A stretch of DNA of 64,000 nt from positions 10,449 through 74,448 of the forward strand of contig JAWDMB010000001.1 in assembly GCA_046536795.1 (NCBI GenBank), written 5' to 3'. The translations under genes were made by a program, and so were the position numbers. Positions 1,874 to 60,564 of this stretch are shown one piece after another (within the stretch, counting starts at the first letter, position 1; every line of letters starts with the position of its first letter). Under the pieces are notes generated by a model that was not told where the DNA came from, ran no database searches, and saw nothing but the letters and a program-made list of their open reading frames with translations. The DNA is from Candidatus Micrarchaeota archaeon. GTDB lineage: Archaea > Micrarchaeota > Micrarchaeia > Micrarchaeales > CABMGC01.

Positions 1874-3445
1874 TTGTTTGAAAACACTTTCGCTAGGGTA
1901 GAGAAGATATTATACCTTAGAAAAGGCTTTAAGCCAAAGTGGGCTTGGAAAAGGGTGTTTTTCAAAAGCTTTTCCTTGCCAAAAAGTATAAACAAGCATA
2001 TTCTTATTTCTGGCGAATCTGGCAGCGGCAAGTCAAACGCTGCTAAGATGCTCTTAAAGTATTTAAGCGAGAAAGGTGCTAACTTCATACTCTTTGATCC
2101 ACATGATGAATACATAGACCTTCCAAGCGCTACAAATGCAAGTATATACGATGCAAGCGTTATAGGCGCTGATATGTTTGCATTAGATGGTATGAGCATA
2201 AAGGAGAAGAGCATTGAATTGACAGAACTTTTTAGAAAGGTGTTTAGACTTGGCGAGGTGCAGAGCAATACACTTTACAGGCTCATAAGCTATACCTATA
2301 ATTTGTTTGCGGAGAAGGGCAAAGTGCCAAGCATTTCAAGCATTCTTTATTCAATAAGTGTTTTTAAGAAGCATGCAAGCAAGGGTGAGCTCGCTATTCT
2401 AAACAGCCTTGAAAAACGTTTCATGCTAGCAAGCGAGCTTGGAAGCAAAAGTATTGATATAGGCAAGCTTCTAAATGAAAAAAGCATATTTGCACTCTCT
2501 TCTTTGCATACAAGCGAGGCGCAAGCTATTTATATAGAAGGCTTTCTCAGGAAGCTCTATAGCTATATTCTAAGCAACAAGCATGCTCGCGAATTATATA
2601 TTGTTATAGATGAAATTGAGAAACTTGGGCAAAGCAGCATATTGGCTAGATTGGCAAACGAGGGCAGGAAGTATGGCATTGGCATTATAGCAATTGCACA
2701 GCATGCGAAGAGCGTTGAAAAGAGCATAAGAGGCAATGCCTCTACAGTACTAGCCTTTTACCAAAGGGAGCCTGAAGAGCTTAATTATGTAGCGAATATG
2801 ATATCTGGCGGCAATGAGCTTGATAGATTTATAGAGATAAAGAAAGAGCTTAGAAAGCTAAAGCAGGGCTATGCTATAGCTCTTACAACAAGCAATGTCG
2901 AGCTTGTAAAATTTGGCCTCTTTGAAGGCAGAGAGGATGTCAGCTATTATCTCTTCAAGCTTGCAAAAGAGCCGATAAGAGAAGAGACACTTTTTGAAAA
3001 GCTAAGCATGTTTGGCAGAGAGGAGATAATGAAAAGCATAGACATGCTAGCAAGCAAAGGGCTTCTTGGCTCCTATACCTTATATGCTAAGCAGTACAAG
3101 GGCAGGTATTATATGATTAAGCAAAGAAACAGCGTAGAGCATGACATTATGGTTCATTTAATAAGCATGCACCTCAAAAAGCATGGCATAGGCAATAAGG
3201 TGTATAATACAAGCTATGGCCCGGATATTATTGCAAGAATGGGCAGGAAAAGAATAGCGATAGAGTATGAGACTGGAAGAAAGAATGAGGAAGAAACATT
3301 AGCAATGCTTGAGAAAAGGAAAATGTATTTCGACAAGGTTATTGTAATTTCAAACATGCCTATTTTTTCAAAAATAAAATCTGAGGGCATAGAAACATTA
3401 AATGCAAATGAATTCTTTGAAAAAGAGCCAAGTAATTATTTTTAA
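1874..3445 (+). CDS. HerA/FtsK/VirB4-like (DUF87-type) P-loop ATPase with C-terminal wHTH-like and PD-(D/E)xK-like nuclease segments
   Basis: Walker A ISGESGSGKSNAAK, FDPHDEY, GEVQSNTLYRL, Walker B LYIVIDEIEKL, EGRKYGIGIIAIAQH. C-terminus has VEHDIMVHL..GPDIIARMGRKRIAIEYETG. TTG start. Confidence 0.7.
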   Translation: MFENTFARVEKILYLRKGFKPKWAWKRVFFKSFSLPKSINKHILISGESGSGKSNAAKMLLKYLSEKGANFILFDPHDEYIDLPSATNASIYDASVIGADMFALDGMSIKEKSIELTELFRKVFRLGEVQSNTLYRLISYTYNLFAEKGKVPSISSILYSISVFKKHASKGELAILNSLEKRFMLASELGSKSIDIGKLLNEKSIFALSSLHTSEAQAIYIEGFLRKLYSYILSNKHARELYIVIDEIEKLGQSSILARLANEGRKYGIGIIAIAQHAKSVEKSIRGNASTVLAFYQREPEELNYVANMISGGNELDRFIEIKKELRKLKQGYAIALTTSNVELVKFGLFEGREDVSYYLFKLAKEPIREETLFEKLSMFGREEIMKSIDMLASKGLLGSYTLYAKQYKGRYYMIKQRNSVEHDIMVHLISMHLKKHGIGNKVYNTSYGPDIIARMGRKRIAIEYETGRKNEEETLAMLEKRKMYFDKVIVISNMPIFSKIKSEGIETLNANEFFEKEPSNYF

Positions 3446-3897
3446 CTTGTAACTTTTGCTATTATCTTACCAAATGTTCCCTCGCTAATAAGAGAGGCTT
3501 CATCTGTATAATTAATAGAGATGTAGCCAGTATATACACTGCCAGCCCGCATGCCTTGAGCTCCTGAGCAATATGTGGTAAATGTATAGCTAGCACCTCT
3601 TGGCAGGTATACAGGCCCTATACTTTGCATGTTTGAAAGCGCTTTGCTTGAACAACCCAATGCTGTTATGTTTATAGGATCCTGCATAGTGTTCTCTATA
3701 GTTATATTAAGCAAGCCGTTTGATGATAAAGAGAAGGATTTGCATACAAAGCCCATAGGCAGTTCGCATCTGCTAATTACATATGTGCTTGAGTTAAAAA
3801 CTCCAAATGAGTAGAAAACAACAAGCATTAAAGAGATTATTGCTATTGTTGAAAGATAAGCGTTTAGATAATCGGCAACTACCTGAAGCCTCTTCAT
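3442..3897 (-). CDS. small class III signal peptide (archaeal type IV pilin-like) protein
   Basis: N-terminus QVVADYLNAYLSTIAIISLMLVVFYSFGVFN aligns residue for residue with QSAMEYLMTYGWAILIISVVLAALFQLGVFN of 54893..55798. Cys-containing, N-X-S/T-rich ectodomain. Confidence 0.55.
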   Translation of the reverse strand: MKRLQVVADYLNAYLSTIAIISLMLVVFYSFGVFNSSTYVISRCELPMGFVCKSFSLSSNGLLNITIENTMQDPINITALGCSSKALSNMQSIGPVYLPRGASYTFTTYCSGAQGMRAGSVYTGYISINYTDEASLISEGTFGKIIAKVTS

Positions 3898-3932
3898 GTA
3901 TTTGCTATGTGATTAAAAAATTTAAATAGCTA

Positions 3933-6623
3933 TTAAGCTCCTTGCTTTTCTTTTACAACATTCTTATCGCTTTCTTTTGCATTGCCATCGTTTTCCTTTG
4001 CAGCATTCTCATCAAGTTCTATCGATTTTTCATATTTCCTGAATAGACTATAGAAGAGCTCCTTCTCTGCTTCTACCACTTCCATCTTCTCCTTCAAGTC
4101 ATTCTTAAATCTATTTTCAATACTTGCTCTCAGCACCTCGCCTGAGCCAATCTCAATCTCAACATAGGCATAGCCGTTTAGCATATCGTCGCCTGGCACG
4201 CTTACATTTATTCTCTTAAGGAAAGGATCATCTGAACTTCTCTGAAGTGCTGGGCTAAATACTGCAATCTTTCCGTTAAATGCATAGCCTTCTGCAACAT
4301 GGTGGTGGCCGCTTGCTATTAGATTAGCGTTGCTCTTCTTTGCTATAAGAGAATTAGCAAAAGCGGTATTCTTTGGCATCTCATGAGCTACTTCTATTAC
4401 ATAGCTGTTTCCTTTGTAGTTTATTGTAAACACATCAGCTCCGTATTCGCCGCCGGGTGCTATCTTTATATGCTCCTTCCAGTCAGATGGCAATTCATTA
4501 GTATGGCTCTCAAGCACTGTAAACAGGTAATCCCTTATTCTTGTCGCCTCGTCAAACTGCCAGCCATCTTCGCTCTTGTTATAGTGGTTGCCTGAAGAAA
4601 GGAGCAAATAGCCGCCGCGCTTAATAAACTCAATAAGCGTTGGAAGCATAAGCCTTAGCACTATGCCTGTCTGCTCATCTATATTGTGTATTCTCCACAT
4701 CTCCTTCTCTTGGTAGTAGGCTAGCATTATTTCATTTATTTCTTCTTTTTGCAAGCCCTGCTTCTCAAGGAATGCCCTGAATCTTGTGCTATCATCAGTA
4801 AGGCTTGACTGCCTTTGCACATTCTTATAATTGTTGTGATTGCCTTCTATCAACTCTGACATTATTATTATATCCGGCTTTTTCTCTGCAATATCCCTTA
4901 TCGCGGCCTTCAGCATGGGCATATTTACATAATTGCCCATGTGTATATCTTGCAGTAATGCAATCTTTAGCTGCTTGCCCTCGATAATGTCGCCTTTTCT
5001 TAAAAGGGATTTTGCAAAATCTTCATCAATATACTTAAGCTCTCTTTCCTTTATCTCGCTAGGCCTCTTGTTTGACAATATAGCATGTTCAAGCTCCTGC
5101 TTGAATGCACCATTTCCATTGCGCCCCTTCTTTGGAGGGTTTTTAATCATGTTAAGAAGCTGTTCAAGCTTTGGCTGCTCTTCAATATCACTCTTTAATC
5201 TCTCATTAGCCAGGAAGCTAGGATAAAGTATTTCTATTTTAGGCGTTCCCTCATTAAGGGTTAGCATTGTGGCTGTTGAGCCGAGAAGCCCTTTATCAAC
5301 AGCTTTGGTCTCATCTGTTATAATTCCAAGATTATGCAGCATTGCCAATTTTTCCATATCTACGAATGGGCCCTGGTTTAATATAGTAAGCAAGCCTTTT
5401 GAATTGTTTAGCAATGGTCTAAACTTAAAATTAGTATATATGTTTCTTCCTCTTATAAATACAACATTTTCATCCTTGCCTATCTTGAATACACCATTTT
5501 CCATATATTTGTATAGCATGCTTGCCTCATCAACATTGCCCTTAAGCTTATAAGCCTCTATCGGGCTTTCTACAACGATTGTATGGCCATTTACCTTATA
5601 TTCAGCAACACGTTCAACCTGCAATATAAGATTCTGCCATCTTCCGAATGCATACTTTATAGATGACTTGTAGTAATCTAGCGCTATCTCATGTATAAGG
5701 TCTGCAGCCGATTTTGTAATAGGTATCTGCCTTGTAAAGATAAGAGCCTGCGACTTGCTTTTAGCTAGATTCTCTGTTGTATTCTCTTCAATGGATTCAT
5801 TAAGCCTTCTATCAAGAGCCCTTAGCTTTGAAGCTATACCTTTTGCTTTACCCTTAAGCTTATTGTATTCATCTATTGAGCCACCGCCCTCCTTTATCTT
5901 CTTCATCTCTTTTCTTATCTCCCTAAGCTTTGCTTTCTCTTTTTCTATAGAAGCCTTAATCTCTTCAGGATCTTTCTTCATTAAAGCCTTTTCATACAGC
6001 TCAGTTAGTAGCGAAGCCCTTTGCTGAAGCTCATCGGCCTCCTCCTTGTTTAGCTTTATCTTAGCATCTATATTAGCGAGCTCTTCAAACAGCTTAAACC
6101 TTTCTTCGTCAGTTGCATTGTTAAGCTGGGCCTTAAGCGCTTTTCTCGATTCTATTGTAGACTTTATTATTGCTTTCCTAGCGCTTATGCCTTCATAAAT
6201 AATCTCTATTCTCTTTGCTATTCCTTCTGGATTATAGTTGAATTCATAGATCAGCTGGTCTTCTATATGCTTAATATTCTCAACATCTTCCTTGCCAAAC
6301 GCATATACAACTTGTGCGTTTTGAGGAAGCTCTTTGAGTATTCTTTCAAGATGTGGCTTTATAACAGCAGCAGCATCTTCTATGTTTGCAACACCTTCCT
6401 CAACAACCAGCAAGCGGTTAAAGTTGCCGCGAGAGCCTTTTCTAGGCAAATCTGGAATGGCGCCTCCAATCACAACAACAAAATCAGGTCTTTTACTCTT
6501 TTCAAGCGTGCTAAGGTAATGCGCTAAGCCTATAAAATTATCGTCGCTCTCATATTTTGTAGAGCCGCCTATCTGATATAAGGCAAGAATCCTGCATTCC
6601 CCCACAGTAGTTGAGTCAGCCAT
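3933..6623 (-). CDS. 896-aa tandem metallophosphoesterase-like protein (degenerate N-terminal copy with coiled-coil insert, intact C-terminal copy)
   Basis: C-terminal copy has LLQDIHMGN, SELIEGNH, LLSSGNHYN, ASGHHHV (calcineurin/Mre11-type motifs I-V). The N-terminal copy has the same spacing with motifs lost (ALYQIGG, VIGGAIPD, AFGKED, IRGRNIY). K/E-rich heptad-like segment at aa ~145-300. Confidence 0.65.
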   Translation of the reverse strand: MADSTTVGECRILALYQIGGSTKYESDDNFIGLAHYLSTLEKSKRPDFVVVIGGAIPDLPRKGSRGNFNRLLVVEEGVANIEDAAAVIKPHLERILKELPQNAQVVYAFGKEDVENIKHIEDQLIYEFNYNPEGIAKRIEIIYEGISARKAIIKSTIESRKALKAQLNNATDEERFKLFEELANIDAKIKLNKEEADELQQRASLLTELYEKALMKKDPEEIKASIEKEKAKLREIRKEMKKIKEGGGSIDEYNKLKGKAKGIASKLRALDRRLNESIEENTTENLAKSKSQALIFTRQIPITKSAADLIHEIALDYYKSSIKYAFGRWQNLILQVERVAEYKVNGHTIVVESPIEAYKLKGNVDEASMLYKYMENGVFKIGKDENVVFIRGRNIYTNFKFRPLLNNSKGLLTILNQGPFVDMEKLAMLHNLGIITDETKAVDKGLLGSTATMLTLNEGTPKIEILYPSFLANERLKSDIEEQPKLEQLLNMIKNPPKKGRNGNGAFKQELEHAILSNKRPSEIKERELKYIDEDFAKSLLRKGDIIEGKQLKIALLQDIHMGNYVNMPMLKAAIRDIAEKKPDIIIMSELIEGNHNNYKNVQRQSSLTDDSTRFRAFLEKQGLQKEEINEIMLAYYQEKEMWRIHNIDEQTGIVLRLMLPTLIEFIKRGGYLLLSSGNHYNKSEDGWQFDEATRIRDYLFTVLESHTNELPSDWKEHIKIAPGGEYGADVFTINYKGNSYVIEVAHEMPKNTAFANSLIAKKSNANLIASGHHHVAEGYAFNGKIAVFSPALQRSSDDPFLKRINVSVPGDDMLNGYAYVEIEIGSGEVLRASIENRFKNDLKEKMEVVEAEKELFYSLFRKYEKSIELDENAAKENDGNAKESDKNVVKEKQGA

Positions 6624-6797: not shown

Positions 6798-7799
6798 ATG
6801 CAAGCAAGGGCACCAGGGGTTATTAAGCTATTGGGCGAGCATGCTGTTGTTTATGGCAAGCTTTCGCTAGCGAGTGCAATAAGCCTTTATGCACATGCAA
6901 AAGCAGAGAAGAAAGGTAGCGAATTTGCGATTGAGCTAAAGGATTTTTCAAAGAGCTATGAGCTGAGCGAGAATGAGCTAAGAAGAATATATCAAAAATA
7001 TGAAAAGAAGAAAAGCTTCGAAGAATTTGCAGCGAATGAAGATGCTATGCTATTGCCATACGCAACGATAGCAAGCATTCTAGCAAGGAAGCAGAGCTTA
7101 GAAGGCATAAAGATAAGCATAAGCTCAGAAATACCTGTGCAGAAGGGCTATGCAAGCAGTGCAGCATGCTCAACAGCATTTGCCTTGGCTTTGGCAAGCG
7201 CAATTGGCTTAGAAATGAGCGATAATGAAATGGTAGAGCTTGCGAGGAATGGCGACAAGGTAATACACAAGAACGAGGGTGCAGGAAGAATAGATATTAA
7301 TGCTTCTTACTATGGCGGCATAGTTAGCTACTCTAGCAAAGAAGGAGCAAAAAGGGAAGAGATAAACGCTAACTTAAACCTATTTGTTGTTGATACAGGC
7401 CCAAAGAAGAGCACAGCAGAGACCGTTGGCCACGTAGCACAGCTCTACAATGAAAGAAGAGAAGAAACGAATGCAATGCTAAATGAGATAGATGCAATAG
7501 CAAGGCAGGGCATAGCGTTGCTAAAGGCAAACAGGCTAAAGGAATTTGGCGAGCTAATGTATAGAAATCATGAATTGCTAAAAATGCTTGGCGTATCGAG
7601 CGAAGGATTAGACAAAGCGGTGGAGAAGGCAAGGGCACATGGCATGCTAGGGGCAAAGCTGAGCGGAGGTGGAGGCGGAGGTATCGCAATAGTATTAGCA
7701 GATGAAGGCAAAGAAGACTTAGATTTTTTCAAAGAGATGGGCTTTAGCGTTAGGAAGGTAAGCATAGATTATAATGGTGCAAAAGGATTAAGCAGGTAA
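6798..7799 (+). CDS. mvk: mevalonate kinase
   Basis: APGVIKLLGEHAVVYG, GYASSAACSTA, KLSGGGGGGIAI (GHMP kinase motifs in mevalonate-kinase arrangement). Confidence 0.9.
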   Translation: MQARAPGVIKLLGEHAVVYGKLSLASAISLYAHAKAEKKGSEFAIELKDFSKSYELSENELRRIYQKYEKKKSFEEFAANEDAMLLPYATIASILARKQSLEGIKISISSEIPVQKGYASSAACSTAFALALASAIGLEMSDNEMVELARNGDKVIHKNEGAGRIDINASYYGGIVSYSSKEGAKREEINANLNLFVVDTGPKKSTAETVGHVAQLYNERREETNAMLNEIDAIARQGIALLKANRLKEFGELMYRNHELLKMLGVSSEGLDKAVEKARAHGMLGAKLSGGGGGGIAIVLADEGKEDLDFFKEMGFSVRKVSIDYNGAKGLSR

Positions 7800-7943: not shown

Positions 7944-10799
7944 ATGGGTAGAGCTTTTGAAACGAAACTTAATATTCTATTAAGCGAAATTCTCAATGAA
8001 AAATTAAAATTGCAAAGTGATGCTGAAACTAGAAGGGGCAGCGGAAGACGGCCAGATATATTGATTGATATAAGTGGAGTTAAAATTGTTATTGAAGCTT
8101 CATACTCACGAAACGATGCAGAAGCAGATGTTAATAAAAAAATAGAAGAAGGTTATGGTGATATAGGGGTAGCCCTTTATTATAAGGAACCGATTTCAGA
8201 TGCTGCTTCCGAACCCGAAATCAAAAACATATTAACTAATTCTAAATTTGAAATCAAAATTATTGCAAAACAAGATCTTTCCGAACTTAACAAAAAAAGG
8301 AGCATTCCTCTAACAGAATGGTCTGAAGTAGACATAGGAGAGCTTTCTTCTATATTAATAAATATCAAAGATTTTTTAGTTAATGAAACTTATACAACAG
8401 AAGCCATAAATGAGATCGAGATTAAGACCAACGATTTTGTCGAGAGGATGAAAACCTTAGACAAAGACAAATTTATGGCACAAAAACTTTATGATGTTTT
8501 TTACAAACTTCAAGGTCTCTACTATGGGGATTACAAAGAGATAGCGGAGCTGGTTTATGCCCAGTCTTTTCTTGCACTATTACTCTCTACGATGTTTTAT
8601 AACTCGATACAATCAACAAAAGGGCTAGACAGTTTAAACAAACTAAAATCGAATCTAGGGATAAAAGGGGCCCTACAAAAAGCTTATGAAGAAATACAAA
8701 ATAAAGTAGATTATAAACCAATATTTATATTAGCACAAGAAGTAATCGAGAATATCCCTTCAGAATTGCTTGATGTTATCTTCGAGCTAAGTATGAAATA
8801 TTCTAATACTTCACTTCTTAAGAAAGACTTTTCAGGAAAGTTATACCATAAGATAGTCGGAGACTGGCAAACCAGAAAAGGTTTTGCAACATATTTTACC
8901 ACAATACCCGCCTCTTATTTGTTATCCTATCTTACCGTATTTTCTGAATTTTCACCTGTCTCCAATGTAGAGGAGCTATCTGTCTGTGATTTTACTTGTG
9001 GTAGCGGGACACTTCTAAACGCTATTTATGCGGCTTTAAAAGACAAATATATTTTAGAAAACTTTGAAAAAGGAGAAGTGGATTTGGAGAAATTTCACAA
9101 AAATTTGTTAGAAAATAATTTATGGGGGTTTGATGCATTAAGGTACGCTGTACAAATAGCTTCACTAAACCTGGTATTCCAGAACCCCAATGTACCTCTG
9201 GAAACTATGAATCTACATACGATACCGTTGGGCCTAGATAAAAATGGGGAAATCGTTTTGGGTTCATTAAAGTTTTTATATAACGATAAATTGTTTCCTT
9301 ATTTTGATGACTACTTAGGAGAAGAAGTGTCTATCCTCGAAAAGCATAGACAGAATCCCACCCTTCCAAAATTTGATTTAATTATTATGAATCCCCCATT
9401 TACAAGGGCTACAGGAAGGCATGGGAAAAAAGGGGAACTATTTGGATTTATTGCTGACAAAGAGATACGCGCTGAGGTTAAAAAAGAATATAAAAAAGCA
9501 AGAGATTACGTTAAAAAGGCGTTACTTAAAACAGCAGACAAATACTTTAAAATTATTGAAGGAGACAGACAAACATATAGTGGGATAGGTCCTGCTGGTG
9601 AAGGCTTACTTTTTATGTATCTAGCTTCGCAGCATCTAAAAGACGGAGGGAGGATCGCGTTTGTCTTACCTAAGTCTATCCTTAGTGGCGTTAGTTGGTT
9701 TCTTATGCGAGCTTATCTTCTGGAAAGATTTCACATCGAATATATAGTAGTAAGTTATGACAAAAGAAAACAAGACGAAGGGGGAGGATACAATTTTTCA
9801 GAATCAACAAACCTGAGCGAAGTACTTATAGTTGCACAGAAGAAAAAGGAAAACGACTCAAAAACCAAATTTATTGCTTTACTAAAAAAACCAGATACTT
9901 CGTTTGAAGCCAAACGGTTGGCGAAATTAATTATAAAAAGTCAGTCATCAACTGACCTTAGCCCATTTTACGGAGTAATGCAAATTGTTTCTAAAAGTGA
10001 GTTAGAGGAGAACATAGATAACTGGATAAGATTTGTTGCTTTTCCAAGTCGGCAGTTAAATGATTTTGTTCGTTACTCAGCGAAGGGAATTATTGCAGGA
10101 CATAAGTTTGAAACGGTAAAGTTGCAAAAACTTGCACAAATAGGCATAGATGCACATCAATTTCGAGATTACTTTAAAGAAACTAATTTATCGGATGGCT
10201 ATCCTGCAGTTATAAGTGGTAAAGAAGAAAATAGGCGAAGACTAATAGTTAAGCCCAATGCAAAAATTATTGCTATAGAAGCCAAAGGAATAGAGCTTTT
10301 CAAGCAAATGTCAAGTAATCTTTTGATTCCGGATAGGATAAGGGTAAATACTGTACATTATTTAGCATTATATTCTGAAGAACCAGTAATGTCTAATTTA
10401 TTTTATTCTGTAAAGTTTATTAAAGAGACAGATGAGCAAAAATATAAAGCCCTTTGTTTGTGGTTGAATAGCGTGTGGGGCATGCTTACTATTTTATCTA
10501 ATAGAGAAGAAACAGAAGGAGGTTGGATAAGACTTAAAGAGGCACACTGGAGAGCACTACCAGTATTAGACGTTTCAAAACTCGATAATAGAACATTGGC
10601 AGAGCTAAGCAAAATATTTGACAAACATAGCAAAAATAGACTGAATAGGCTTACTGCGCAGTTTGACCCAAAGAATTTAGATCAAGCAAGAAAGACGCTT
10701 GATTTAGATTTCGCTGAAGCGATTGGTATAAAAATAACAGAAGAAGAACTAATAGAAGTATATAAAATTATACACGCCGCTTTTTCGGCATGGTTATAA
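7944..10799 (+). CDS. single-chain restriction-modification enzyme (Type IIG/IIL-like): N-terminal PD-(D/E)xK-like nuclease + gamma-class N6-adenine methyltransferase + C-terminal specificity region
   Basis: N-terminus RRPDILIDISGVKIVIEASYS. MTase motif I VCDFTCGSGTLL (~8985-9017), motif IV IIMNPPFTRATG (NPPF at 9389-9400), LKDGGRIAFVLPKSIL. About 350 aa follow the catalytic core. GAGGT lies 9 nt upstream of the ATG. AAA/GAA/TTA codon bias differs from neighbours. Confidence 0.75.
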   Translation: MGRAFETKLNILLSEILNEKLKLQSDAETRRGSGRRPDILIDISGVKIVIEASYSRNDAEADVNKKIEEGYGDIGVALYYKEPISDAASEPEIKNILTNSKFEIKIIAKQDLSELNKKRSIPLTEWSEVDIGELSSILINIKDFLVNETYTTEAINEIEIKTNDFVERMKTLDKDKFMAQKLYDVFYKLQGLYYGDYKEIAELVYAQSFLALLLSTMFYNSIQSTKGLDSLNKLKSNLGIKGALQKAYEEIQNKVDYKPIFILAQEVIENIPSELLDVIFELSMKYSNTSLLKKDFSGKLYHKIVGDWQTRKGFATYFTTIPASYLLSYLTVFSEFSPVSNVEELSVCDFTCGSGTLLNAIYAALKDKYILENFEKGEVDLEKFHKNLLENNLWGFDALRYAVQIASLNLVFQNPNVPLETMNLHTIPLGLDKNGEIVLGSLKFLYNDKLFPYFDDYLGEEVSILEKHRQNPTLPKFDLIIMNPPFTRATGRHGKKGELFGFIADKEIRAEVKKEYKKARDYVKKALLKTADKYFKIIEGDRQTYSGIGPAGEGLLFMYLASQHLKDGGRIAFVLPKSILSGVSWFLMRAYLLERFHIEYIVVSYDKRKQDEGGGYNFSESTNLSEVLIVAQKKKENDSKTKFIALLKKPDTSFEAKRLAKLIIKSQSSTDLSPFYGVMQIVSKSELEENIDNWIRFVAFPSRQLNDFVRYSAKGIIAGHKFETVKLQKLAQIGIDAHQFRDYFKETNLSDGYPAVISGKEENRRRLIVKPNAKIIAIEAKGIELFKQMSSNLLIPDRIRVNTVHYLALYSEEPVMSNLFYSVKFIKETDEQKYKALCLWLNSVWGMLTILSNREETEGGWIRLKEAHWRALPVLDVSKLDNRTLAELSKIFDKHSKNRLNRLTAQFDPKNLDQARKTLDLDFAEAIGIKITEEELIEVYKIIHAAFSAWL

Positions 10800-11019
10800 A
10801 ATAAATGTTTATATAAACTACAGTCAGAGAAAACAAAAATTCAAGCTTAAGAAGCTCAATGTTGAAGGCTTCGATGCTGAGCTATACTTTGATGTAAAAG
10901 ACATGCAAAACCTTAAGCTTGGGGAAGTCATTAATCTTATAGACAAGCTGCAAGCAAACGATAAAAAGATAGAAGCTTCATTTAGATATAATATTAAATA
11001 AACACCACGCTATATTTTA

Positions 11020-11928
11020 TCACTTCTTTTTAAATACTATATATTCGTCTTTTTTATGGGTTGGTTTGGCCTTTGCATTTAATATTATTACTTCTGCCCC
11101 ATCCTCTTTATAATCGGCTGCATATTCATTTATCTTGTTACCTCCAAGAAGACCTATATCTAAAATTATTATAGCCACTCCTTTATAGTGCAACAGTTTA
11201 TAATAATCTCTTATTTCTTTGAGTCCTTTGTTAAGCGTACCCTCATTATTAGCATATTTGAGCTCTAAAACGTATTGATCATCAACTGTTATATCTCCCC
11301 TGTTGTGTTGACTTCTCACATCTTTTATGTTCATACCAGGAAACTTAGCATGTAGAGAGGTCAGTAAAATGTTTCCAAAGTCGTCTTCACCAGATATCTC
11401 AAGTGATTTAATGTGTTCTCTAAATTCATTATCGATATAATTCATAACTATATTAAAATTATTTAAGTTCGTACCGGCTTTGGATGTGTTTTGAGCGTTA
11501 ACTTCATTTGTTTCAGTTTTTGTTTCAGATTTTTTGCTGCCTTCATTATGAGATATGCTATTAGACGGTGGCTCTTGTATCGCCTGTTGGGCTATTCTGC
11601 TTTCTGTAGATTCAGGATAAGGTGGTACATCTATGCGATGCTCTTGAACAAATTTTAATATAAACTTGCTAGGTACCTCATTCACTATAAAATCTTCGTA
11701 TGCGTCGCGATCAAGTGGACGCTTTTCTTTATCACCAGTTATGGGATCAACAGTGTAAGGTTTTGGGCTACTACCATACTCATCACATAATTGCTTTATT
11801 TGAGAAAATGTTAATATAGAAGCTACTGCCTCTTTCCAAGATTTTATTTCTTGAGATCTTTGATAGTTTTCTTTGGCAGTTTCTATTATCTTTTTAGTAC
11901 CTTCTTTTATAGAATCTAGTATTCCCAT
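11020..11928 (-). CDS. hypothetical protein with C-terminal PD-(D/E)xK nuclease-like domain
   Basis: C-terminal third has GEDDFGNILLTSL..RGDITVDDQYVLELKYANN..GVAIIILD (D..ExK core). Polar low-complexity linker. Same AAA-rich codon bias as the RM gene. Confidence 0.55.
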   Translation of the reverse strand: MGILDSIKEGTKKIIETAKENYQRSQEIKSWKEAVASILTFSQIKQLCDEYGSSPKPYTVDPITGDKEKRPLDRDAYEDFIVNEVPSKFILKFVQEHRIDVPPYPESTESRIAQQAIQEPPSNSISHNEGSKKSETKTETNEVNAQNTSKAGTNLNNFNIVMNYIDNEFREHIKSLEISGEDDFGNILLTSLHAKFPGMNIKDVRSQHNRGDITVDDQYVLELKYANNEGTLNKGLKEIRDYYKLLHYKGVAIIILDIGLLGGNKINEYAADYKEDGAEVIILNAKAKPTHKKDEYIVFKKK

Positions 11929-12059
11929 GATTTAATAAAGAATTATAAATTTTAAAAACCTTTCATAGGCTAACTATACGGCCATGATATTAAGTTTTGC
12001 TTTTTTATTCAGTGAAAAAGGAGAAGAGGTGAGAAAGCTGGAGTGGGGAAGTGCCTTCT

Positions 12060-12953
12060 CTACCTCTTTGTTCCTTCTAGCATAAGTTCCTTTGGATCAA
12101 TTCCTTTCATCAATTCTTCGTTTAGCAAATGCAATTCAGCGATATGCTGGTTTAGTGCTCTTATCCTTGCAATATTCTTAACCTTTGAAATTGTATTTGA
12201 ATTTATCATTGCAAGCTGCGTATTTAATTGATCGATTTTCTTGTTGTTCTCCTTGACCATATCCCTTATATAACTCTTAATCACAGTGGGTGAATTAGCG
12301 TATTCCAATACCTTTACCCCTGTCATAACGGCAAGGTAATTGTCTTTTAGCTTCCTGCCAAGTCCAACGATAAGGTTCGTTATAGCATTAGCATAATCCA
12401 TTAATTCATCGGTTGAGAAGGCTTTTTCAACAAGGAGCGGTATTATATGCACTTCATAATCCCATGAATTGCCGAGCTTGTCCCTTACATTTAGTATGTT
12501 GTCCATCAATATTGTTAGTTCGTTTATGCCTTCTACCTTGCTCATCCAGCTCTGCAATACAAGAACATTGTACGCTTCCTTCTTTCCTTCTCCAAACCTG
12601 CGTTTGTAATCATTAAGCAGCATGTTTGCAATCCTTGCCTTTGCATTCTCTGCACTCTTGTCTGCATTCGCCTTTTCCTCTTCCTTCAGTGCATTGTAAT
12701 GCATAACCAGGTCATTTACACTGTTTGATTCATTTATGAGCTCATAAACTGCTTTTTCTGCAGCACTTATGCTACCAAGCCTTTTATTATAGCTAAGCAT
12801 TAGCATACCTGTGAGCTCTGCATACCTCTTGTATTCACTCTTATTCTTAGACTTCTTCATAATAAGCTCGAAAAGCATGCTACTGCTTAACTGCTTATTC
12901 TTTTCTTGCATATAATCAAGCTCATCTATAGCCATATTAATCAGCATAAACAA
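12060..12953 (-). CDS. hypothetical all-alpha protein
   Basis: Long ORF with host-like (AAG/CTT/AGC) codon usage and no recognisable motifs. Confidence 0.5.
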   Translation of the reverse strand: MFMLINMAIDELDYMQEKNKQLSSSMLFELIMKKSKNKSEYKRYAELTGMLMLSYNKRLGSISAAEKAVYELINESNSVNDLVMHYNALKEEEKANADKSAENAKARIANMLLNDYKRRFGEGKKEAYNVLVLQSWMSKVEGINELTILMDNILNVRDKLGNSWDYEVHIIPLLVEKAFSTDELMDYANAITNLIVGLGRKLKDNYLAVMTGVKVLEYANSPTVIKSYIRDMVKENNKKIDQLNTQLAMINSNTISKVKNIARIRALNQHIAELHLLNEELMKGIDPKELMLEGTKR

Positions 12954-13039
12954 TCTGCCATGTATTGCGGCCTGTCTTTATTAGCTTTATAGGTCTATTC
13001 TCATCGTTCTTCGCTTGCGGATTATGCCTTCTAAGCTTG

Positions 13040-13408
13040 TCAAAAAACATCAGCCCACCTCTTATACATTACATAATGGCTCTCAAGATACCTACTTCTT
13101 AATGCATTCCTCTTTATAAACCTTTCTAATGCCTCGCTCTCATCCTTCTTAGCTGTTACAACATAGCCTGCTGAGCCGCTTGTTATTTGAACTTCTACAA
13201 CACCATTAAGGCCAAGAAGCTCATCAGCTATTTCCTTTGCGTTTGTATTAGGCTGCGGTTCGATAAAATAAAGGCCGTACTTGCCTGTCTTTATTGTCTT
13301 TACTCCCATTGATTTCTTCATAACCCCACCAGTGCTATAAGCATGAATGGCGATGGTGGTTGGATCTTTGGGGAGCATGAAAGAGTCGGGCGAATTATAA
13401 TTATGCAT
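13040..13408 (-). CDS. stand-alone RAM (Lrp/AsnC ligand-binding) domain protein
   Basis: GLYFIEPQPNTNAKEIADELLGLNGVVEVQITSGSAGYVVTAKKDESEALERFIKRN matches the beta-alpha-beta-beta-alpha-beta RAM pattern. The true start may be an internal Met (MKKSMGV). Confidence 0.55.
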   Translation of the reverse strand: MHNYNSPDSFMLPKDPTTIAIHAYSTGGVMKKSMGVKTIKTGKYGLYFIEPQPNTNAKEIADELLGLNGVVEVQITSGSAGYVVTAKKDESEALERFIKRNALRSRYLESHYVMYKRWADVF

Positions 13409-13525
13409 ATTTTCCCACCATCACCACGAGTAAATAATTTATTCTAAATAATATAAATATTTATTGGAATAATTTTACTAATGTTTGAGGATTTGTATTG
13501 AAACTTAGGTAATTAATTTTATATT

Positions 13526-14557
13526 TTGGGAATTATTATGCCTGCATCACTCGAAAAGCAAGAATACATAAAGAATGAATTGCCCTATGAGCTGCTAAAA
13601 GCACTTTATAATAACTCTAGATTATCGTTAAGAGACCTTGCCAAACAACATGGAGTATCGCACCATGTTGTAAGCTCTTTGCTAAAAAGATTGGAAAAGG
13701 ATTATGGCATAGTATATACATTAGACCTTGACGAGAACAAATTGGGCTTTGCAAATGGAAAGATTGTTACAATAAAATTCAAGAACAAGCCAGATATAGA
13801 GATAATAAAGGAAAAACTCATAAATGATCCTTTTGTACAAGACCTTTACCTAGCAGACGGTGACTTTGACCTTATTATGTATGTATCTGGCATAACAGAA
13901 GAAGAATTCATGCCTTGGCAGTGGCTTTTAAGACAGTACTTTAATAAGTATACACCCTTAGTTAGGATTTCTACGTTGACAAAAAAATACGCTGGCTTTA
14001 TGCCACTTAGAAACAAAGCAATAATGAATTCACCAAACCTATCTGAATTTGAGAAAAAAGTACTTACTATTCTGAACGAAAATTCAAGAGAAAAGATATC
14101 AGAGATAGCAAAAAAGGTTAAGGTAAAAGATCTAGACAAGGTTATCTATGTTATCAAAAAGCTAAAGGAAAGAGGTATAATAAAGAGGTTTACAGCAATA
14201 ACGACCAAACCAGGCAAGAGCATTATACAGGCCTTTGGTGCTACAATAAACCCAAGTAATAACCACCTTAACTACGTGATAAATTTTTATAACGAAGTAG
14301 TCAAAGAAGAGAAACACCAATTTGCAAGCGATTATATATTAATTATAGACACTTTAGGGTATTTTGATGGATTTTATATTGCAAGCTTCAGCCGAGGCGA
14401 AGATGCAGAAAAAAGAGGAGCAGAGATGTATAGAAAGATATTTGCAGATGAAATACTCTTGCTAGAGAAAGCAATAATAACAGATACATTGGTAGGCTAC
14501 TTACCCCTGCATATAGATTCTTTTGAAGTCTGGAAAAAAGAACTAAAATTAGAATAG
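13526..14557 (+). CDS. tandem-duplicated Lrp/AsnC-type transcriptional regulator (two HTH+RAM units)
   Basis: ELLKALYNNSRLSLRDLAKQHGVSHHVVSSLLKRLEKDYGI, and a second copy FEKKVLTILNENSREKISEIAKKVKV..VIYVIKKLKERGII. Each is followed by a RAM-like segment. Confidence 0.7.
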   Translation: MGIIMPASLEKQEYIKNELPYELLKALYNNSRLSLRDLAKQHGVSHHVVSSLLKRLEKDYGIVYTLDLDENKLGFANGKIVTIKFKNKPDIEIIKEKLINDPFVQDLYLADGDFDLIMYVSGITEEEFMPWQWLLRQYFNKYTPLVRISTLTKKYAGFMPLRNKAIMNSPNLSEFEKKVLTILNENSREKISEIAKKVKVKDLDKVIYVIKKLKERGIIKRFTAITTKPGKSIIQAFGATINPSNNHLNYVINFYNEVVKEEKHQFASDYILIIDTLGYFDGFYIASFSRGEDAEKRGAEMYRKIFADEILLLEKAIITDTLVGYLPLHIDSFEVWKKELKLE

Positions 14558-57402: not shown

Positions 57403-60400
57403 CTAACCCGGCATAGTGTAGTTATTGTGCACCCAGCTTGGCTTTGGCGTTACATAAGGCAAACCACCGGTGTAGTTGTTTAATGCTAATATGACAACAG
57501 GGTTTGTTGAATTCATGTAGTTTATTCCTGTGAAGTTGCTAGGATATACGCGCGTAAAGCCAGGGAGCTCGCCTAAGAAGAAACCTTTGTAGTAATTAGA
57601 GCTGTAGAACTCTGTAGGTGCATTAGTTATAGTATAATTATTACTGTTTGGCGTATATACAACCATGAAGTCTGCATAGGTTTGACCATAAAGGTTTATT
57701 GTTCCAAAATAGAATTCTGTGTTTGGAACGATAAATGCATTGCTTATCTTTGTTCCATTTGAATAGTATATGTTTACAGGCTTTGTTGCATTGTAGAGGC
57801 TTGTTGGTATGCAATATGTCCCGTTTATATATACTTGGTTTCCTATAAGCAGTATTGCCTTCACCATAGGCTCAGTTGAATTGCTGAGCATGCAGTAGTT
57901 GTTTATGTTGTTAAGAGTTACAGGTATCAGTGCATATACAGGATCATGATTAAGCTCACATGTCGAGGTGCCGAGCCTATATGGTTGGCCTACTAGCGCA
58001 CCTTGGCTTTCTGCAAATGACATGTTTGTTTCGTTGACATGTATGCATGCTAAAAAGTCGAGAGCACCCCACTTTGGCAATAGTTGATCATCAAGCAGAA
58101 GATATTTTGCGTGAACAACGTTGTTCATAAAGCTTGCCATCTCTTTAGCGCCATAGCCGTCAGCAGGACCAAGTACATATTGTGCTGCTGCAGCATAATC
58201 TAGAGTTGGCACCGCATTATCGCCACGGAGCACAGCGTTGCTGTTGCCAAACCAGTTGATCCAATCACCATAGTCCCACCAAGAGAGTATTCTGGGACCA
58301 AATGGGCCAACGTTAGCACGCATCCATGCTGTAGCGTTAAGCCAATAATTTGGCACAACGTTGCAGAACAGATCATAGCCTATAGCATTTCCGCTATTTA
58401 CTATGCTTGTACAGTTTGGATTAATTATTGCAGAGATGAGAGGTATAAACGTTGCCGCTTCTAAAAGTGCAACAAGAATTGCAACACCATAAAGAGCTCT
58501 CATTGCCTTTGGATTGTATTCTGCTTTTCTGGGCTTAAAGCTATAGCCGTTTTGTATGTAGAGAATAAGTTCACCGATTATTGCGCCTATTGCTATTATA
58601 TAGCCAACACCAAAGTGTGGCAGGTACTTAACTTCTATCATGCCTGCTACAGCAAGCGGCCATACGGCTGCGAGAGCCATTATGCTTGTTTTTGAATTTC
58701 TATAATAAATTGCCAAAAGCTCCAGAATAGTAAATAATGCTAGAACAAGCCATACAATAATGTTAACTCCACCTATGCTAATGCCTATAATTCCAAAGCC
58801 TGCAGAGCCAAAATTAAAATTAATCCCTGTTGGTGCATACTCTTGCACTGTCATGAATAGGGGTATAGATGGTGTTACAAAATGGGTGCTTAATTGTATA
58901 TATTTCTTGAACGGTACCCCAAGAGGCGTGAATATTATAAGAAGCAGAGCAAAGAATACAAGAAGAGAAAATATGCTAAACTTTGATAACCCTTTAATAT
59001 CACGCTTAAATCTACCAAATAATGCTTCAAAAAATATGACAAATGCGCCAAAAAGAGAAAGTATAGAAAAGACTGCTATCGCTAAGCTGTTTTTCTCTAA
59101 TTTTTCTGCGTATAGCTTAGATAGATAATCAAACAGTATTACAAAGATTAGTGCAAAAAGCGGAAATGCGATTATTATAGGTATGCCAATCACTGAAGGG
59201 GTTCTTTCTGTAAGTGTTGCAGAGTATGGTGCATAAAGAATGTAGAATATTGAGAACACTATAATAACTATTAAATTCATCTTATAGAACTCCTTCATGC
59301 CTTCATTTCTTATAACGCTTATAACGCCTTGTGCTATTATATAAGCAGCGAGCACACCAGCATTAACTGTATAGTAGTGTGCACCGAGGAATGTTGAGGC
59401 ATAAGCTATACCAGCGAGTATGGCGAATCTCGGCTCTTTCATATATTTTACAGCAACTATGTATGTTGCATAGAAGAAGAACATTGCAAATATACCCCAC
59501 GGCTCGAGAAGCTGCTCGCCTGCTATGAATGTTGTAACCAATGCTGGCATACTTGCAATTAGGGTTGCACCTATCAGTGCAGGAAACTTGCCATATTCAT
59601 GATAAAGGAAGAAGAACACAACAAATACCAGAAGCGCTGCGGTTATAGGCGGATACCAACTACTTACAAGGCTAAGCAAATTTATATCAACGCTTGTTGC
59701 ACTGGCAGGATGTGTATTTGCAAGATCATACCAGTAAGCTTCTAGATAAGGCACTATCGGCTGAATTCTATGTATGGTTCCATTTACTACAGTCGGCCAA
59801 GCTGAATGATCATGTAGCAATTGGTAGCCATATGTTAGTATATATTCTGTGCTTATCATATCAAAATAAGGGTCAAACTCAAAATACCTCGGAGCTACAC
59901 CTATATTTGCAATTCTCGTTGCAAAGGTAAGAAACATAAGGAAAAGTAGGAAGAGCCAGACATAGCTCATGTTCGCTTTCTCTTTGCTAGCACCTTTTTT
60001 GTGAGCTTCAAGGATAAGCCTCTCTTCGGCTTCATGCATCTCTATTAGCTCTTTCTCTTCTTTCTTATGCAGAGAGATTATTCTTTCCTTCTCCTCTGCG
60101 CTCATGCTGCTTATTGCTGCTTCTTCGCTCTCGTGCTTTCTCTCAAGCGCCTTCTCCTCATCTTCATGCTTTTTGATAAGATCTAGCTCAAGATTTAGCT
60201 CACGCATCTCTGCTCTTATATCATTTATTCTTTTCTTATAGTCTTCTTCCCTCTTAGCCTCTTCGCTTTTTTCCTTACTAAATTTAAATGCGCCCTGCTG
60301 GAAAGACAAAGCTATACCTATTATTGTAAGAAGTATCACATTTGCATTATAAAGCGATTCAGAGAAGGAAAAGAAGTGTATATATGGTATTAAATAGCTT

Positions 60401-60564
60401 TCAAGCCAGACGAGCGCGGGAGGAAATATTAGACCAAAGATAAATCCAAATATTGTTATTTCAAACATTGAAAGATGTGTTTTTCTAAGAAGGGCTAACG
60501 CTAGAAAGAAGCCAGGCACCATTATTGAGAGAAATGCTTCTAATATAACAATAAACAAAGACAT
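57403..60564 (-). CDS. aglB: oligosaccharyltransferase AglB (STT3 family) with ~200-aa N-terminal extension
   Basis: WWDYGDWI (WWDYG motif), EFDPYFD after the canonical first TM helix, at least 13 TM helices, large C-terminal sequon-rich globular domain. Confidence 0.9.
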   Translation of the reverse strand: MSLFIVILEAFLSIMVPGFFLALALLRKTHLSMFEITIFGFIFGLIFPPALVWLESYLIPYIHFFSFSESLYNANVILLTIIGIALSFQQGAFKFSKEKSEEAKREEDYKKRINDIRAEMRELNLELDLIKKHEDEEKALERKHESEEAAISSMSAEEKERIISLHKKEEKELIEMHEAEERLILEAHKKGASKEKANMSYVWLFLLFLMFLTFATRIANIGVAPRYFEFDPYFDMISTEYILTYGYQLLHDHSAWPTVVNGTIHRIQPIVPYLEAYWYDLANTHPASATSVDINLLSLVSSWYPPITAALLVFVVFFFLYHEYGKFPALIGATLIASMPALVTTFIAGEQLLEPWGIFAMFFFYATYIVAVKYMKEPRFAILAGIAYASTFLGAHYYTVNAGVLAAYIIAQGVISVIRNEGMKEFYKMNLIVIIVFSIFYILYAPYSATLTERTPSVIGIPIIIAFPLFALIFVILFDYLSKLYAEKLEKNSLAIAVFSILSLFGAFVIFFEALFGRFKRDIKGLSKFSIFSLLVFFALLLIIFTPLGVPFKKYIQLSTHFVTPSIPLFMTVQEYAPTGINFNFGSAGFGIIGISIGGVNIIVWLVLALFTILELLAIYYRNSKTSIMALAAVWPLAVAGMIEVKYLPHFGVGYIIAIGAIIGELILYIQNGYSFKPRKAEYNPKAMRALYGVAILVALLEAATFIPLISAIINPNCTSIVNSGNAIGYDLFCNVVPNYWLNATAWMRANVGPFGPRILSWWDYGDWINWFGNSNAVLRGDNAVPTLDYAAAAQYVLGPADGYGAKEMASFMNNVVHAKYLLLDDQLLPKWGALDFLACIHVNETNMSFAESQGALVGQPYRLGTSTCELNHDPVYALIPVTLNNINNYCMLSNSTEPMVKAILLIGNQVYINGTYCIPTSLYNATKPVNIYYSNGTKISNAFIVPNTEFYFGTINLYGQTYADFMVVYTPNSNNYTITNAPTEFYSSNYYKGFFLGELPGFTRVYPSNFTGINYMNSTNPVVILALNNYTGGLPYVTPKPSWVHNNYTMPG

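Follow-up and report, generated by a model that had tools for sequence, protein, structure and literature searches.

We propose that the two large genes lying between positions 1874 and 6623 of a 64,000-nt stretch of the genome of Candidatus Micrarchaeota archaeon (GCA_046536795.1, contig JAWDMB010000001.1, forward strand 10,449-74,448; hereafter the window) are functionally separate, and that one of them, which encodes an ATPase with a candidate nuclease domain, belongs with the nfo gene immediately upstream. The ATPase-nuclease gene (1874-3445, + strand, 523 aa, TTG start) converges on a small pilin-like open reading frame (ORF; 3442-3897, - strand, 151 aa), which it overlaps by 4 nt at 3442-3445, and on a large phosphoesterase ORF (3933-6623, - strand, 896 aa); nfo, the gene for endonuclease IV, occupies 680-1861 on the + strand (TIGR00587, 2.6e-67; Pfam AP_endonuc_2, 2.3e-45). 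An earlier note made from the sequence alone had given coordinates for the three ORFs and their overlap that proved exact, and had read the region as a candidate DNA-processing or defence module in which a HerA-like ATPase-nuclease is joined to an Mre11-type phosphoesterase with a long coiled coil. All three ORFs are real chromosomal genes. We consider it moderately likely that the two large ones, each a core gene specific to Micrarchaeota, are convergent neighbours through partly kept ancestral synteny and not parts of one machine, with endonuclease IV and the ATPase-nuclease forming a repair pair and the phosphoesterase acting independently. Our best reading is that nfo plus the ATPase gene, and not the ATPase gene plus the phosphoesterase gene, constitutes the real functional unit.

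The assignment of the 523-aa protein to the HerA/FtsK/VirB4-like P-loop ATPases was confirmed by both sequence profiles and structure prediction. Its core (residues 1-355; 1874-2938, + strand) matched the Pfam DUF87/HerA central domain at 7.8e-17 and TrwB_AAD_bind at 1e-11, and carries the Walker A, Walker B and arginine finger traits of an FtsK/HerA-type RecA-like core, with Walker A GESGSGKS at residues 47-54 (nt 2012-2035), Walker B VIDE at 244-247 and EGRK at 263-266 all invariant in homologues. An AlphaFold model built from a 44-sequence alignment was confident (pLDDT 91, pTM 0.88), and a Foldseek search of the PDB with this model returned DndH-C of the DndFGH restriction complex (PDB 7es4) as the closest structural match (9.4e-18), followed by Sulfolobus HerA (4d2i, 3.5e-16) and VirB4 (2.5e-13), with the anti-phage HerA-DUF4297 and HerA-SIR2 complexes also among the neighbours. 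The best matches to curated families (CedD, mad8 and various HerA and DndH models) all fell far under the family cut-offs. The best NCBIfam match was CedD (8.4e-22), which scored 77.5 bits where the cut-off is 600 and aligned with the ATPase part alone, and the HerA models NF040819 and NF040937 scored 33-37 bits against cut-offs of 800-970. In PADLOC the best match was mad8 (7e-24), which aligned over nearly its whole profile, and DndH (1.3e-11) and several anti-phage HerA models matched as well. A HAS barrel was not found in the ATPase, in which ~40 residues, with two strands in the model, precede the P-loop; HerA alignments begin at HerA residue ~139. The 523-aa protein is a HerA/DndH/VirB4-type ATPase without an N-terminal HAS barrel. 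Membership in HerA proper was rejected on the missing barrel, the sub-cut-off scores and the lack of nurA, mre11 or rad50 among the window proteins scanned and in the ATPase loci examined, and membership in the Ced/VirB4 group on the CedD score and the lack of a transmembrane and an N-terminal domain; the protein did not classify with conjugative VirB4/TraC-type ATPases.

Two further domains are predicted downstream of the ATPase core. A winged-helix-like domain (residues 356-415; 2939-3118, + strand) is modelled by AlphaFold2 with pLDDT ~90 as helices 356-363, 370-376 and 382-394 followed by strands 398-403 and 410-415, in support of the winged helix that the earlier note had read from the sequence; no profile matched this region. 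The remaining part of the protein (3128-3445, + strand) is a candidate restriction-endonuclease-like domain of the PD-(D/E)xK type, with an alpha-beta-beta-beta-alpha-beta topology predicted by AlphaFold2 over residues 421-493. Across 44 ATPase homologues (40-90% identity) residues N419, H423, P450, D451, E464, Y465 and E466 are invariant and E422 is kept in at least 90%, making E422, D451, E464 and E466 the candidate catalytic residues, with K470 nearby. The motif reads E…D…ExE, an ExE variant of (D/E)xK for which BamHI is a precedent; in PD-(D/E)xK nucleases the acidic catalytic residues stand on helix 1 and strands 2-3 of such a core. Because neither a Pfam nor a PDB profile matches the domain, the PD-(D/E)xK-like label of the earlier note stands on motif and predicted topology, from which we consider the C-terminus a putative nuclease of the restriction-endonuclease-like fold. 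A homologue search with the domain returned just fragments of the same ATPase family and no named nuclease family.

The gene most consistently found beside the ATPase gene is nfo. To judge neighbourhoods we collected 101 loci, scored them by tblastn with the window proteins, collapsed them to lineage clusters at ≥75% ATPase identity and counted full-length orthologues with enough flank to judge. In the window the nfo stop lies 12 nt from the ATPase start on the same strand, and of the 26 assessable clusters 23 have nfo on the ATPase strand, no more than 2 kb upstream. These clusters span 42-97% ATPase identity, and most of the nfo-ATPase gaps measure 12-250 nt while the other flanks differ. 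The two genes are a co-directional pair that is probably co-transcribed, and the DNA-processing role of the ATPase, plausible from its domains, is strengthened by this conserved pairing. None of nurA, mre11 and rad50 was seen among the window proteins scanned or in the ATPase loci examined (L001-L011, L022-L023 and L026-L101), where nfo is the recurrent neighbour. More distant relatives that consist of the ATPase only (398 aa, 32-35% identity, L081-L093) have neither the winged helix nor the nuclease-like domain and do not lie beside nfo; one of them (L083, 6887-8083) is flanked by a pilin-like gene with a class III signal and by a gene for a 1447-aa coiled-coil membrane protein. Endonuclease IV of the window also carries an N-terminal extension of ~120 aa (680-1040) with no Pfam match; in L002 and L028, among other relatives, the equivalent is encoded by a small ORF of its own that directly precedes an nfo of 270-281 aa.

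We hypothesize that the ATPase is a ring-forming double-stranded DNA translocase of the HerA/DndH type in which, going by the model, each subunit would bear two fused domains, one a winged helix and the other a restriction-fold nuclease of the BamHI-like (D…ExE) kind. Endonuclease IV would incise abasic sites or clean blocked 3' ends, the ATPase ring would load on the nicked or broken DNA via its winged helices, and ATP would drive threading of the DNA into the ring's own nuclease domains, so that a nick or end would grow into a gap or overhang. Such a mode would resemble that of HerA-NurA with the nuclease in cis. The HerA-NurA systems of Sulfolobus and Thermococcus (PDB 4d2i, 9x1l/9x1m) share with the window protein the RecA-like FtsK/HerA core fold and the logic of an ATPase plus a nuclease, and differ from it in having a HAS barrel, in a separate nuclease and in genomic partners, which are mre11-rad50-nurA for HerA and nfo for the window ATPase. 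NurA has an RNase-H-like fold, whereas the nuclease-like domain of the window ATPase has a predicted restriction-endonuclease topology. The anti-phage HerA-DUF4297 system likewise couples a HerA ring to an effector, and the DUF4297 effector has a PD-(D/E)xK-type fold. DndFGH, HerA-DUF4297 and HerA-SIR2 are, however, patchy, multi-gene defence systems, whereas the window ATPase is encoded by a lineage-wide core gene beside nfo and has no separate effector gene.

If this interpretation is correct, a phylum-wide association of endonuclease IV with a HerA-type motor bearing its own nuclease would represent a new organization of nick and end processing, in a group of uncultivated, genome-reduced symbionts whose DNA repair is largely unexplored. 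The pair would then parallel HerA-NurA and the anti-phage HerA-nuclease complexes in a cis-fused form, and it makes a clear biochemical target. We regard it as the most interesting product of this analysis, although it lies partly outside the 1874-6623 region on which the earlier note centred.

Adjacency of the ATPase and large genes was conserved in far fewer lineages. The large gene lies within 1.5 kb downstream of the ATPase gene, always convergent, in 7 of 22 clusters, is 7 kb away in one, and is absent from this position in 14. The two genes are therefore not strangers in every genome, yet the pattern goes a long way towards that. The seven positive clusters comprise two groups, namely the window's clade, with large proteins at least 53% identical, and a distant group (L022, L055 and L069) in which the large protein is 21-26% identical and the genes are 511-797 nt apart; in L022 this gap is filled by a Ham1 gene. 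The distant group is basal in a rough neighbour-joining tree of the ATPase, and the order nfo, ATPase gene and converging large gene is probably ancestral and broken in most lineages. Because the two genes converge they cannot share a transcript, and we argue against an obligate partnership on three grounds, namely this orientation, how often the genes are apart, and the absence of Mre11- or Rad50-specific features. A dedicated two-protein module, as the earlier note had it, is not supported by this comparison, and convergent adjacency in one clade is no evidence for a module.

When 21 loci were clustered by their surroundings, the large gene was found in at least five different gene contexts, with neighbours that vary by clade: an ABC transporter, a weak HMG-CoA-synthase-like gene, a PNP/UDP phosphorylase, a ROK kinase, a DHH-large gene-Ham1 arrangement and a mevalonate-pathway cluster. 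No Rad50/SbcC-like gene was present among these neighbours. A mevalonate theme recurs as mevalonate kinase (MVK) in clade A, UbiD-AcnX-IPK-MVK in L002 (574-8504), an AcnX fragment in L022 and an HMG-CoA-synthase-like gene in clade C (2e-4, under the Pfam threshold); in the window the large ORF is itself flanked by mevalonate kinase (6798-7799, + strand; TIGR00549, 4.9e-61). A nucleotide theme appears as DHH, large gene and Ham1 in L022 (93-5342) and as the PNP/UDP phosphorylase in clade D. L015 8069-12616 and L020 9130-12595 are also among the loci that show these neighbours. The recurrence may be chance in small genomes or may hint at a substrate.

The small ORF between the two large genes was described in the earlier note as pilin-like and as forming a two-gene unit with the large ORF. 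It has no Pfam match of its own; the first description is supported by a homologue in L002 (41% identical, E 1e-31), found elsewhere in that locus, which starts with KAQSAMEYLMTYGWAIL, a canonical archaeal class III (pilin) signal peptide. Such signals consist of K/R-(G/A) and then Q-x-S-x-E-x-x-x-L, ahead of a hydrophobic helix. Comparison of the signal in the homologue, KA|QSAMEYLMTYGWAIL, with that in the window copy, KRLQVVADYLNAYLSTIAII, indicates that the latter keeps the hydrophobic helix and the acidic +5 residue and has an atypical cleavage site, that is, a degenerate class III signal. The two-gene unit was not upheld. The small ORF was not found between the two large genes in L001, L003, L009-L011 or L030, and is thus missing at this position both where the large protein is 83% identical (L030, in which the two large genes overlap directly) and in relatives at 53-55%. 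A gap of 413-493 nt between the large genes occurs only in the metagenome contigs L031, L032 and L043, with ATPases 96-97% identical. Its place between the large genes is restricted to the window and to near-identical strains, and no link of the small ORF to either large gene is conserved.

The 896-aa protein on its own returned nothing significant from Pfam, NCBIfam, PADLOC or PDB searches, and a word-indexed search with it gave seven relatives only. Searching 1.84 billion representatives exhaustively by phmmer, with the C-terminal 357 residues as query, raised this to 34, nearly all 850-990 aa long with the match at the C-terminus. At the family level Pfam Metallophos (PF00149) was matched by 16 of 27 members (best 1.2e-10) and Metallophos_2 by 13 of 27; the domain was seen only by such family-level scanning, the window protein itself lying below the Pfam threshold. 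The C-terminal calcineurin-like metallophosphoesterase domain (residues 546-840; 4104-4988, - strand), assigned from PF00149, its motifs and Foldseek, contains motif I D559-x-H561, motif II S589-E590, motif III G678-N679-H680, motif IV H747 and motif V G772-H773-H774-H775. Across the 27 members (21-84% identity) D559, H561, position 590, N679, H680, H747, H773 and H775 are invariant or nearly so, and the domain is, from these motifs, probably an active calcineurin-like phosphoesterase. Motif II (4854-4859, - strand) reads SE in the window protein and GD in at least 90% of the family, the replacement of the metal-bridging Asp by Glu being confined to the window protein and relatives at least 81% identical to it.

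The metallophosphoesterase part of the earlier assignment was borne out in this way, and the Mre11-type part was not. Foldseek with the AlphaFold2 model of the 896-aa protein returned generic calcineurin-like folds (E 1e-4 to 1e-3), with Rv0805 and purple acid phosphatases first and with PolD DP1, M. jannaschii Mre11 and the Pol-alpha B subunit also at E≤1e-3. The phosphoesterase families reached by the PDB sequence profile of the 896-aa family were SbcD/Mre11 and PolD DP1, at E 0.06-0.6, with the SbcD/Mre11 alignment covering motifs I-II only. Weak NCBIfam matches among the 27 members were to YaeI (11), LpxG (3) and DP1 (1), and none was to Mre11 or SbcD.

Upstream of this domain the 896-aa protein has an unusual architecture. 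A linker (residues 471-545; 4989-5213, - strand) bears the family-signature motif NKRPSEIK, in which P521, S522 and E523 are nearly invariant, and is preceded by a middle alpha/beta region (residues 327-470; 5214-5645, - strand) in the AlphaFold2 secondary structure. Before it lies a helical, coiled-coil-like insertion of ~215 aa (residues 111-326; 5646-6293, - strand), modelled as five or six helices of 20-43 residues (111-130, 132-167, 172-214, 219-246, 250-281 and 304-326), which gave profile matches to designed or natural coiled coils and weak LmuB/SMC-type matches. The N-terminus (residues 8-112; 6288-6602, - strand) has the beta-alpha-beta start of a degenerate phosphoesterase-like domain: residues 1-110 can be aligned, in register, to the C-terminal domain over motifs I-II and the region of motif III, but the ligands are exchanged, YQIGG standing in place of DxH, IGGAI in place of GD and FGKED in place of GNH. 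The hhalign comparison of the two domains was in register and weak (P 1e-3 to 3e-3, probability 10-22%). The tandem phosphoesterase of the earlier note is accordingly only suggestive, and it is plausible on the sequence that residues 8-112 and 327-470 together form a degenerate, metal-ligand-free copy that carries the insertion. The long coiled coil holds as a coiled-coil-like insertion and fails as a Rad50 equivalent, because no zinc hook was seen in residues ~209-262, where a by-eye reading of that stretch found no cysteine and hence no CxxC, and because neither Pfam nor NCBIfam matched an ABC or other ATPase family on the protein.

Several known systems help to place this architecture. The PF00149 phosphoesterases (Mre11/SbcD, PolD DP1, YaeI and Rv0805) share with the C-terminal domain motifs I-V, which in the family read DxH, GD, GNH(D/E), H and GHxH, and the beta-alpha-beta-alpha-beta sandwich fold, whereas the 896-aa family is divergent, Micrarchaeota-restricted and without specific affinity to Mre11, and would place a degenerate second copy with a helical insertion before the active-type domain. 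The B subunits of eukaryotic replicative polymerases provide a precedent for a metal-ligand-free calcineurin fold serving as a scaffold; in contrast to these, the 896-aa protein would hold an inactive and an apparently active copy in one polypeptide and has neither an OB fold nor a link to a polymerase. Rad50 and SMC proteins combine a split ABC head with a long antiparallel coiled coil ending in a CxxC hook or hinge, unlike the insertion helices here. We suggest that the inactivated N-terminal copy and the helical insertion probably serve oligomerization or scaffolding, and that the C-terminal copy, judged by its motifs, would be a catalytically competent two-metal phosphodiesterase for which nucleic-acid or nucleotide phosphodiesters are the favoured substrates. 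Within the calcineurin-like superfamily this would be an unusual arrangement, in which a live copy comes after a dead one that bears a helical insertion; the protein is a lineage marker.

Both protein families have a narrow range. All named relatives of the ATPase and of the large protein are from Micrarchaeota, bar one labelled Marsarchaeota, and scans of viral contigs found relatives of neither. The ATPase family is 41-97% identical across Micrarchaeota in syntenic housekeeping contexts, and the large protein is 98% identical to one on a contig of 'Candidatus Micrarchaeota archaeon F8S.bin.15' (L012). In the literature searched neither family was found described in Micrarchaeota, and both lie outside the curated libraries searched (Pfam, NCBIfam and PADLOC). 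An FtsK/HerA ATPase fused to a nuclease-like domain and a calcineurin-like phosphoesterase of unusual tandem architecture are new in this sense, both being of known kinds.

Several observations weigh against two separate genes and an nfo-centred repair pair. Three of the 26 clusters have no nfo beside the ATPase gene, and the adjacency in the others could be inherited synteny and not a functional link; the nuclease-like domain is unmatched by Pfam and PDB sequence profiles; and the AlphaFold2 model of the 896-aa protein is mediocre (pLDDT 65). The large gene also stands beside the ATPase gene in a basal branch of the ATPase tree and in a second branch far from it, and an adjacency that is old and kept in about a third of lineages could reflect function. 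This last pattern, together with the phyletic range that the two families share and the fact that the only phosphoesterase families reached by the PDB profile are SbcD/Mre11 and PolD DP1, is what speaks for a joint action of the ATPase-nuclease and the coiled-coil phosphoesterase in DNA-end processing, as a compact equivalent of HerA-NurA with Mre11-Rad50 and, in some variants of this reading, with nfo in the same ancestral cluster. Canonical Mre11, Rad50, HerA and NurA were also missing among the ~34 window proteins scanned against Pfam, a set that takes in about half of the ORFs of at least 120 aa at 12-64 kb. We judge such a joint machine rather unlikely: the genes lie on opposite strands and are not co-transcribed, 14 of 22 clusters retain both genes but not their adjacency, the fold and family matches are generic (Rv0805 and purple acid phosphatases, YaeI and LpxG), and the protein has no ABC ATPase head, no cysteine seen in residues ~209-262 and a short helical insertion. 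Less probable still is an ancestral Micrarchaeota three-gene repair cluster of nfo, ATPase-nuclease and converging tandem phosphoesterase, in which incision, ATP-driven threading into the cis nuclease and an Mre11-like phosphoesterase with a helical tether would replace a HerA-NurA-Mre11-Rad50 set missing from reduced genomes. The 896-aa protein might also be a metabolic or salvage phosphodiesterase for nucleotides, nucleic acids, or isoprenoid or lipid pyrophosphates, unrelated to DNA repair and with its pathway hinted at by the mevalonate and nucleotide housekeeping neighbours and by the YaeI and LpxG matches. We find this improbable, as no neighbour is conserved across clades, the HMG-CoA-synthase-like match is under threshold, small genomes make chance adjacency likely, and a helical insertion in a protein of ~900 aa would be out of the ordinary for a simple metabolic hydrolase.

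Two other roles for the ATPase appear very unlikely. Anti-phage defence, with a HerA-type ATPase and a nuclease effector or in a MADS-like system with a methyltransferase-like gene at 7944-10799, is suggested by the mad8 and anti-phage HerA matches in PADLOC, by the HerA-DUF4297 and HerA-SIR2 complexes among the structural neighbours, and by a weak mad2 match of the 951-aa methyltransferase (1.5e-13). MADS is, however, an eight-gene operon (mad1-mad8) reported from Proteobacteria, and membership was rejected here with only a mad8-like ATPase domain and, 4.5 kb away, a weak mad2-like methyltransferase that is missing, with its neighbours, from related loci. NCBIfam scores of 22-40 bits against cut-offs of 800-850 likewise speak against defence. 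Because both families are found almost only in Micrarchaeota, where they keep synteny with core genes, the opposite of what is expected of patchy defence genes, and because relatives in viruses or mobile elements are lacking, we argue against the defence role raised in the earlier note. Similarly slight is the chance that the protein is a DNA-transfer ATPase of the Ced/Ted/VirB4/TraD type which, together with the pilin-like gene, serves conjugation or the uptake of DNA. CedD is the best NCBIfam match, TrwB/TraD-type matches were obtained, a pilin-like gene abuts the ATPase gene in the window, and ATPase-only relatives lie near pilin-like genes in L083; yet CedD possesses a transmembrane domain and, at its N-terminus, a VirB4-like domain, whereas the window protein starts ~40 residues before the P-loop (77 bits versus 600), the pilin-like gene occupies this position only where the ATPase is 96-97% identical, and no other genes of a type IV secretion system or of Ced were seen in 30 neighbourhoods examined. 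The pairing of endonuclease IV with the ATPase-nuclease continues to be the interpretation that we favour.

The window is ordinary chromosome, because it carries genes for PolD DP1 and DP2, PolB, a thermosome subunit and aminoacyl-tRNA synthetases. Upstream of nfo, a gene for a LamG/Laminin_G_3-type protein (94-435, + strand) is cut by the window start; the protein is 309 aa long in L030 (6198-7127). A 1053-aa ORF at 57403-60564 (- strand), without a Pfam match even at E 0.01, adjoins a GT4 glycosyltransferase. Between the mevalonate kinase and POR genes lies a strain-variable island (7944-14557), all of whose listed genes are missing from the related loci L001-L003 and L009. It encodes the 951-aa N6-adenine methyltransferase-like protein (7944-10799), which has a nuclease-like N-terminal motif and weak mad2/PglX/Eco57I matches, a 302-aa ORF with a D…ELK motif and a weak NucT match, a 297-aa ORF, an Lrp/AsnC-like gene and a double winged-helix regulator, and is probably a restriction-modification or defence islet.

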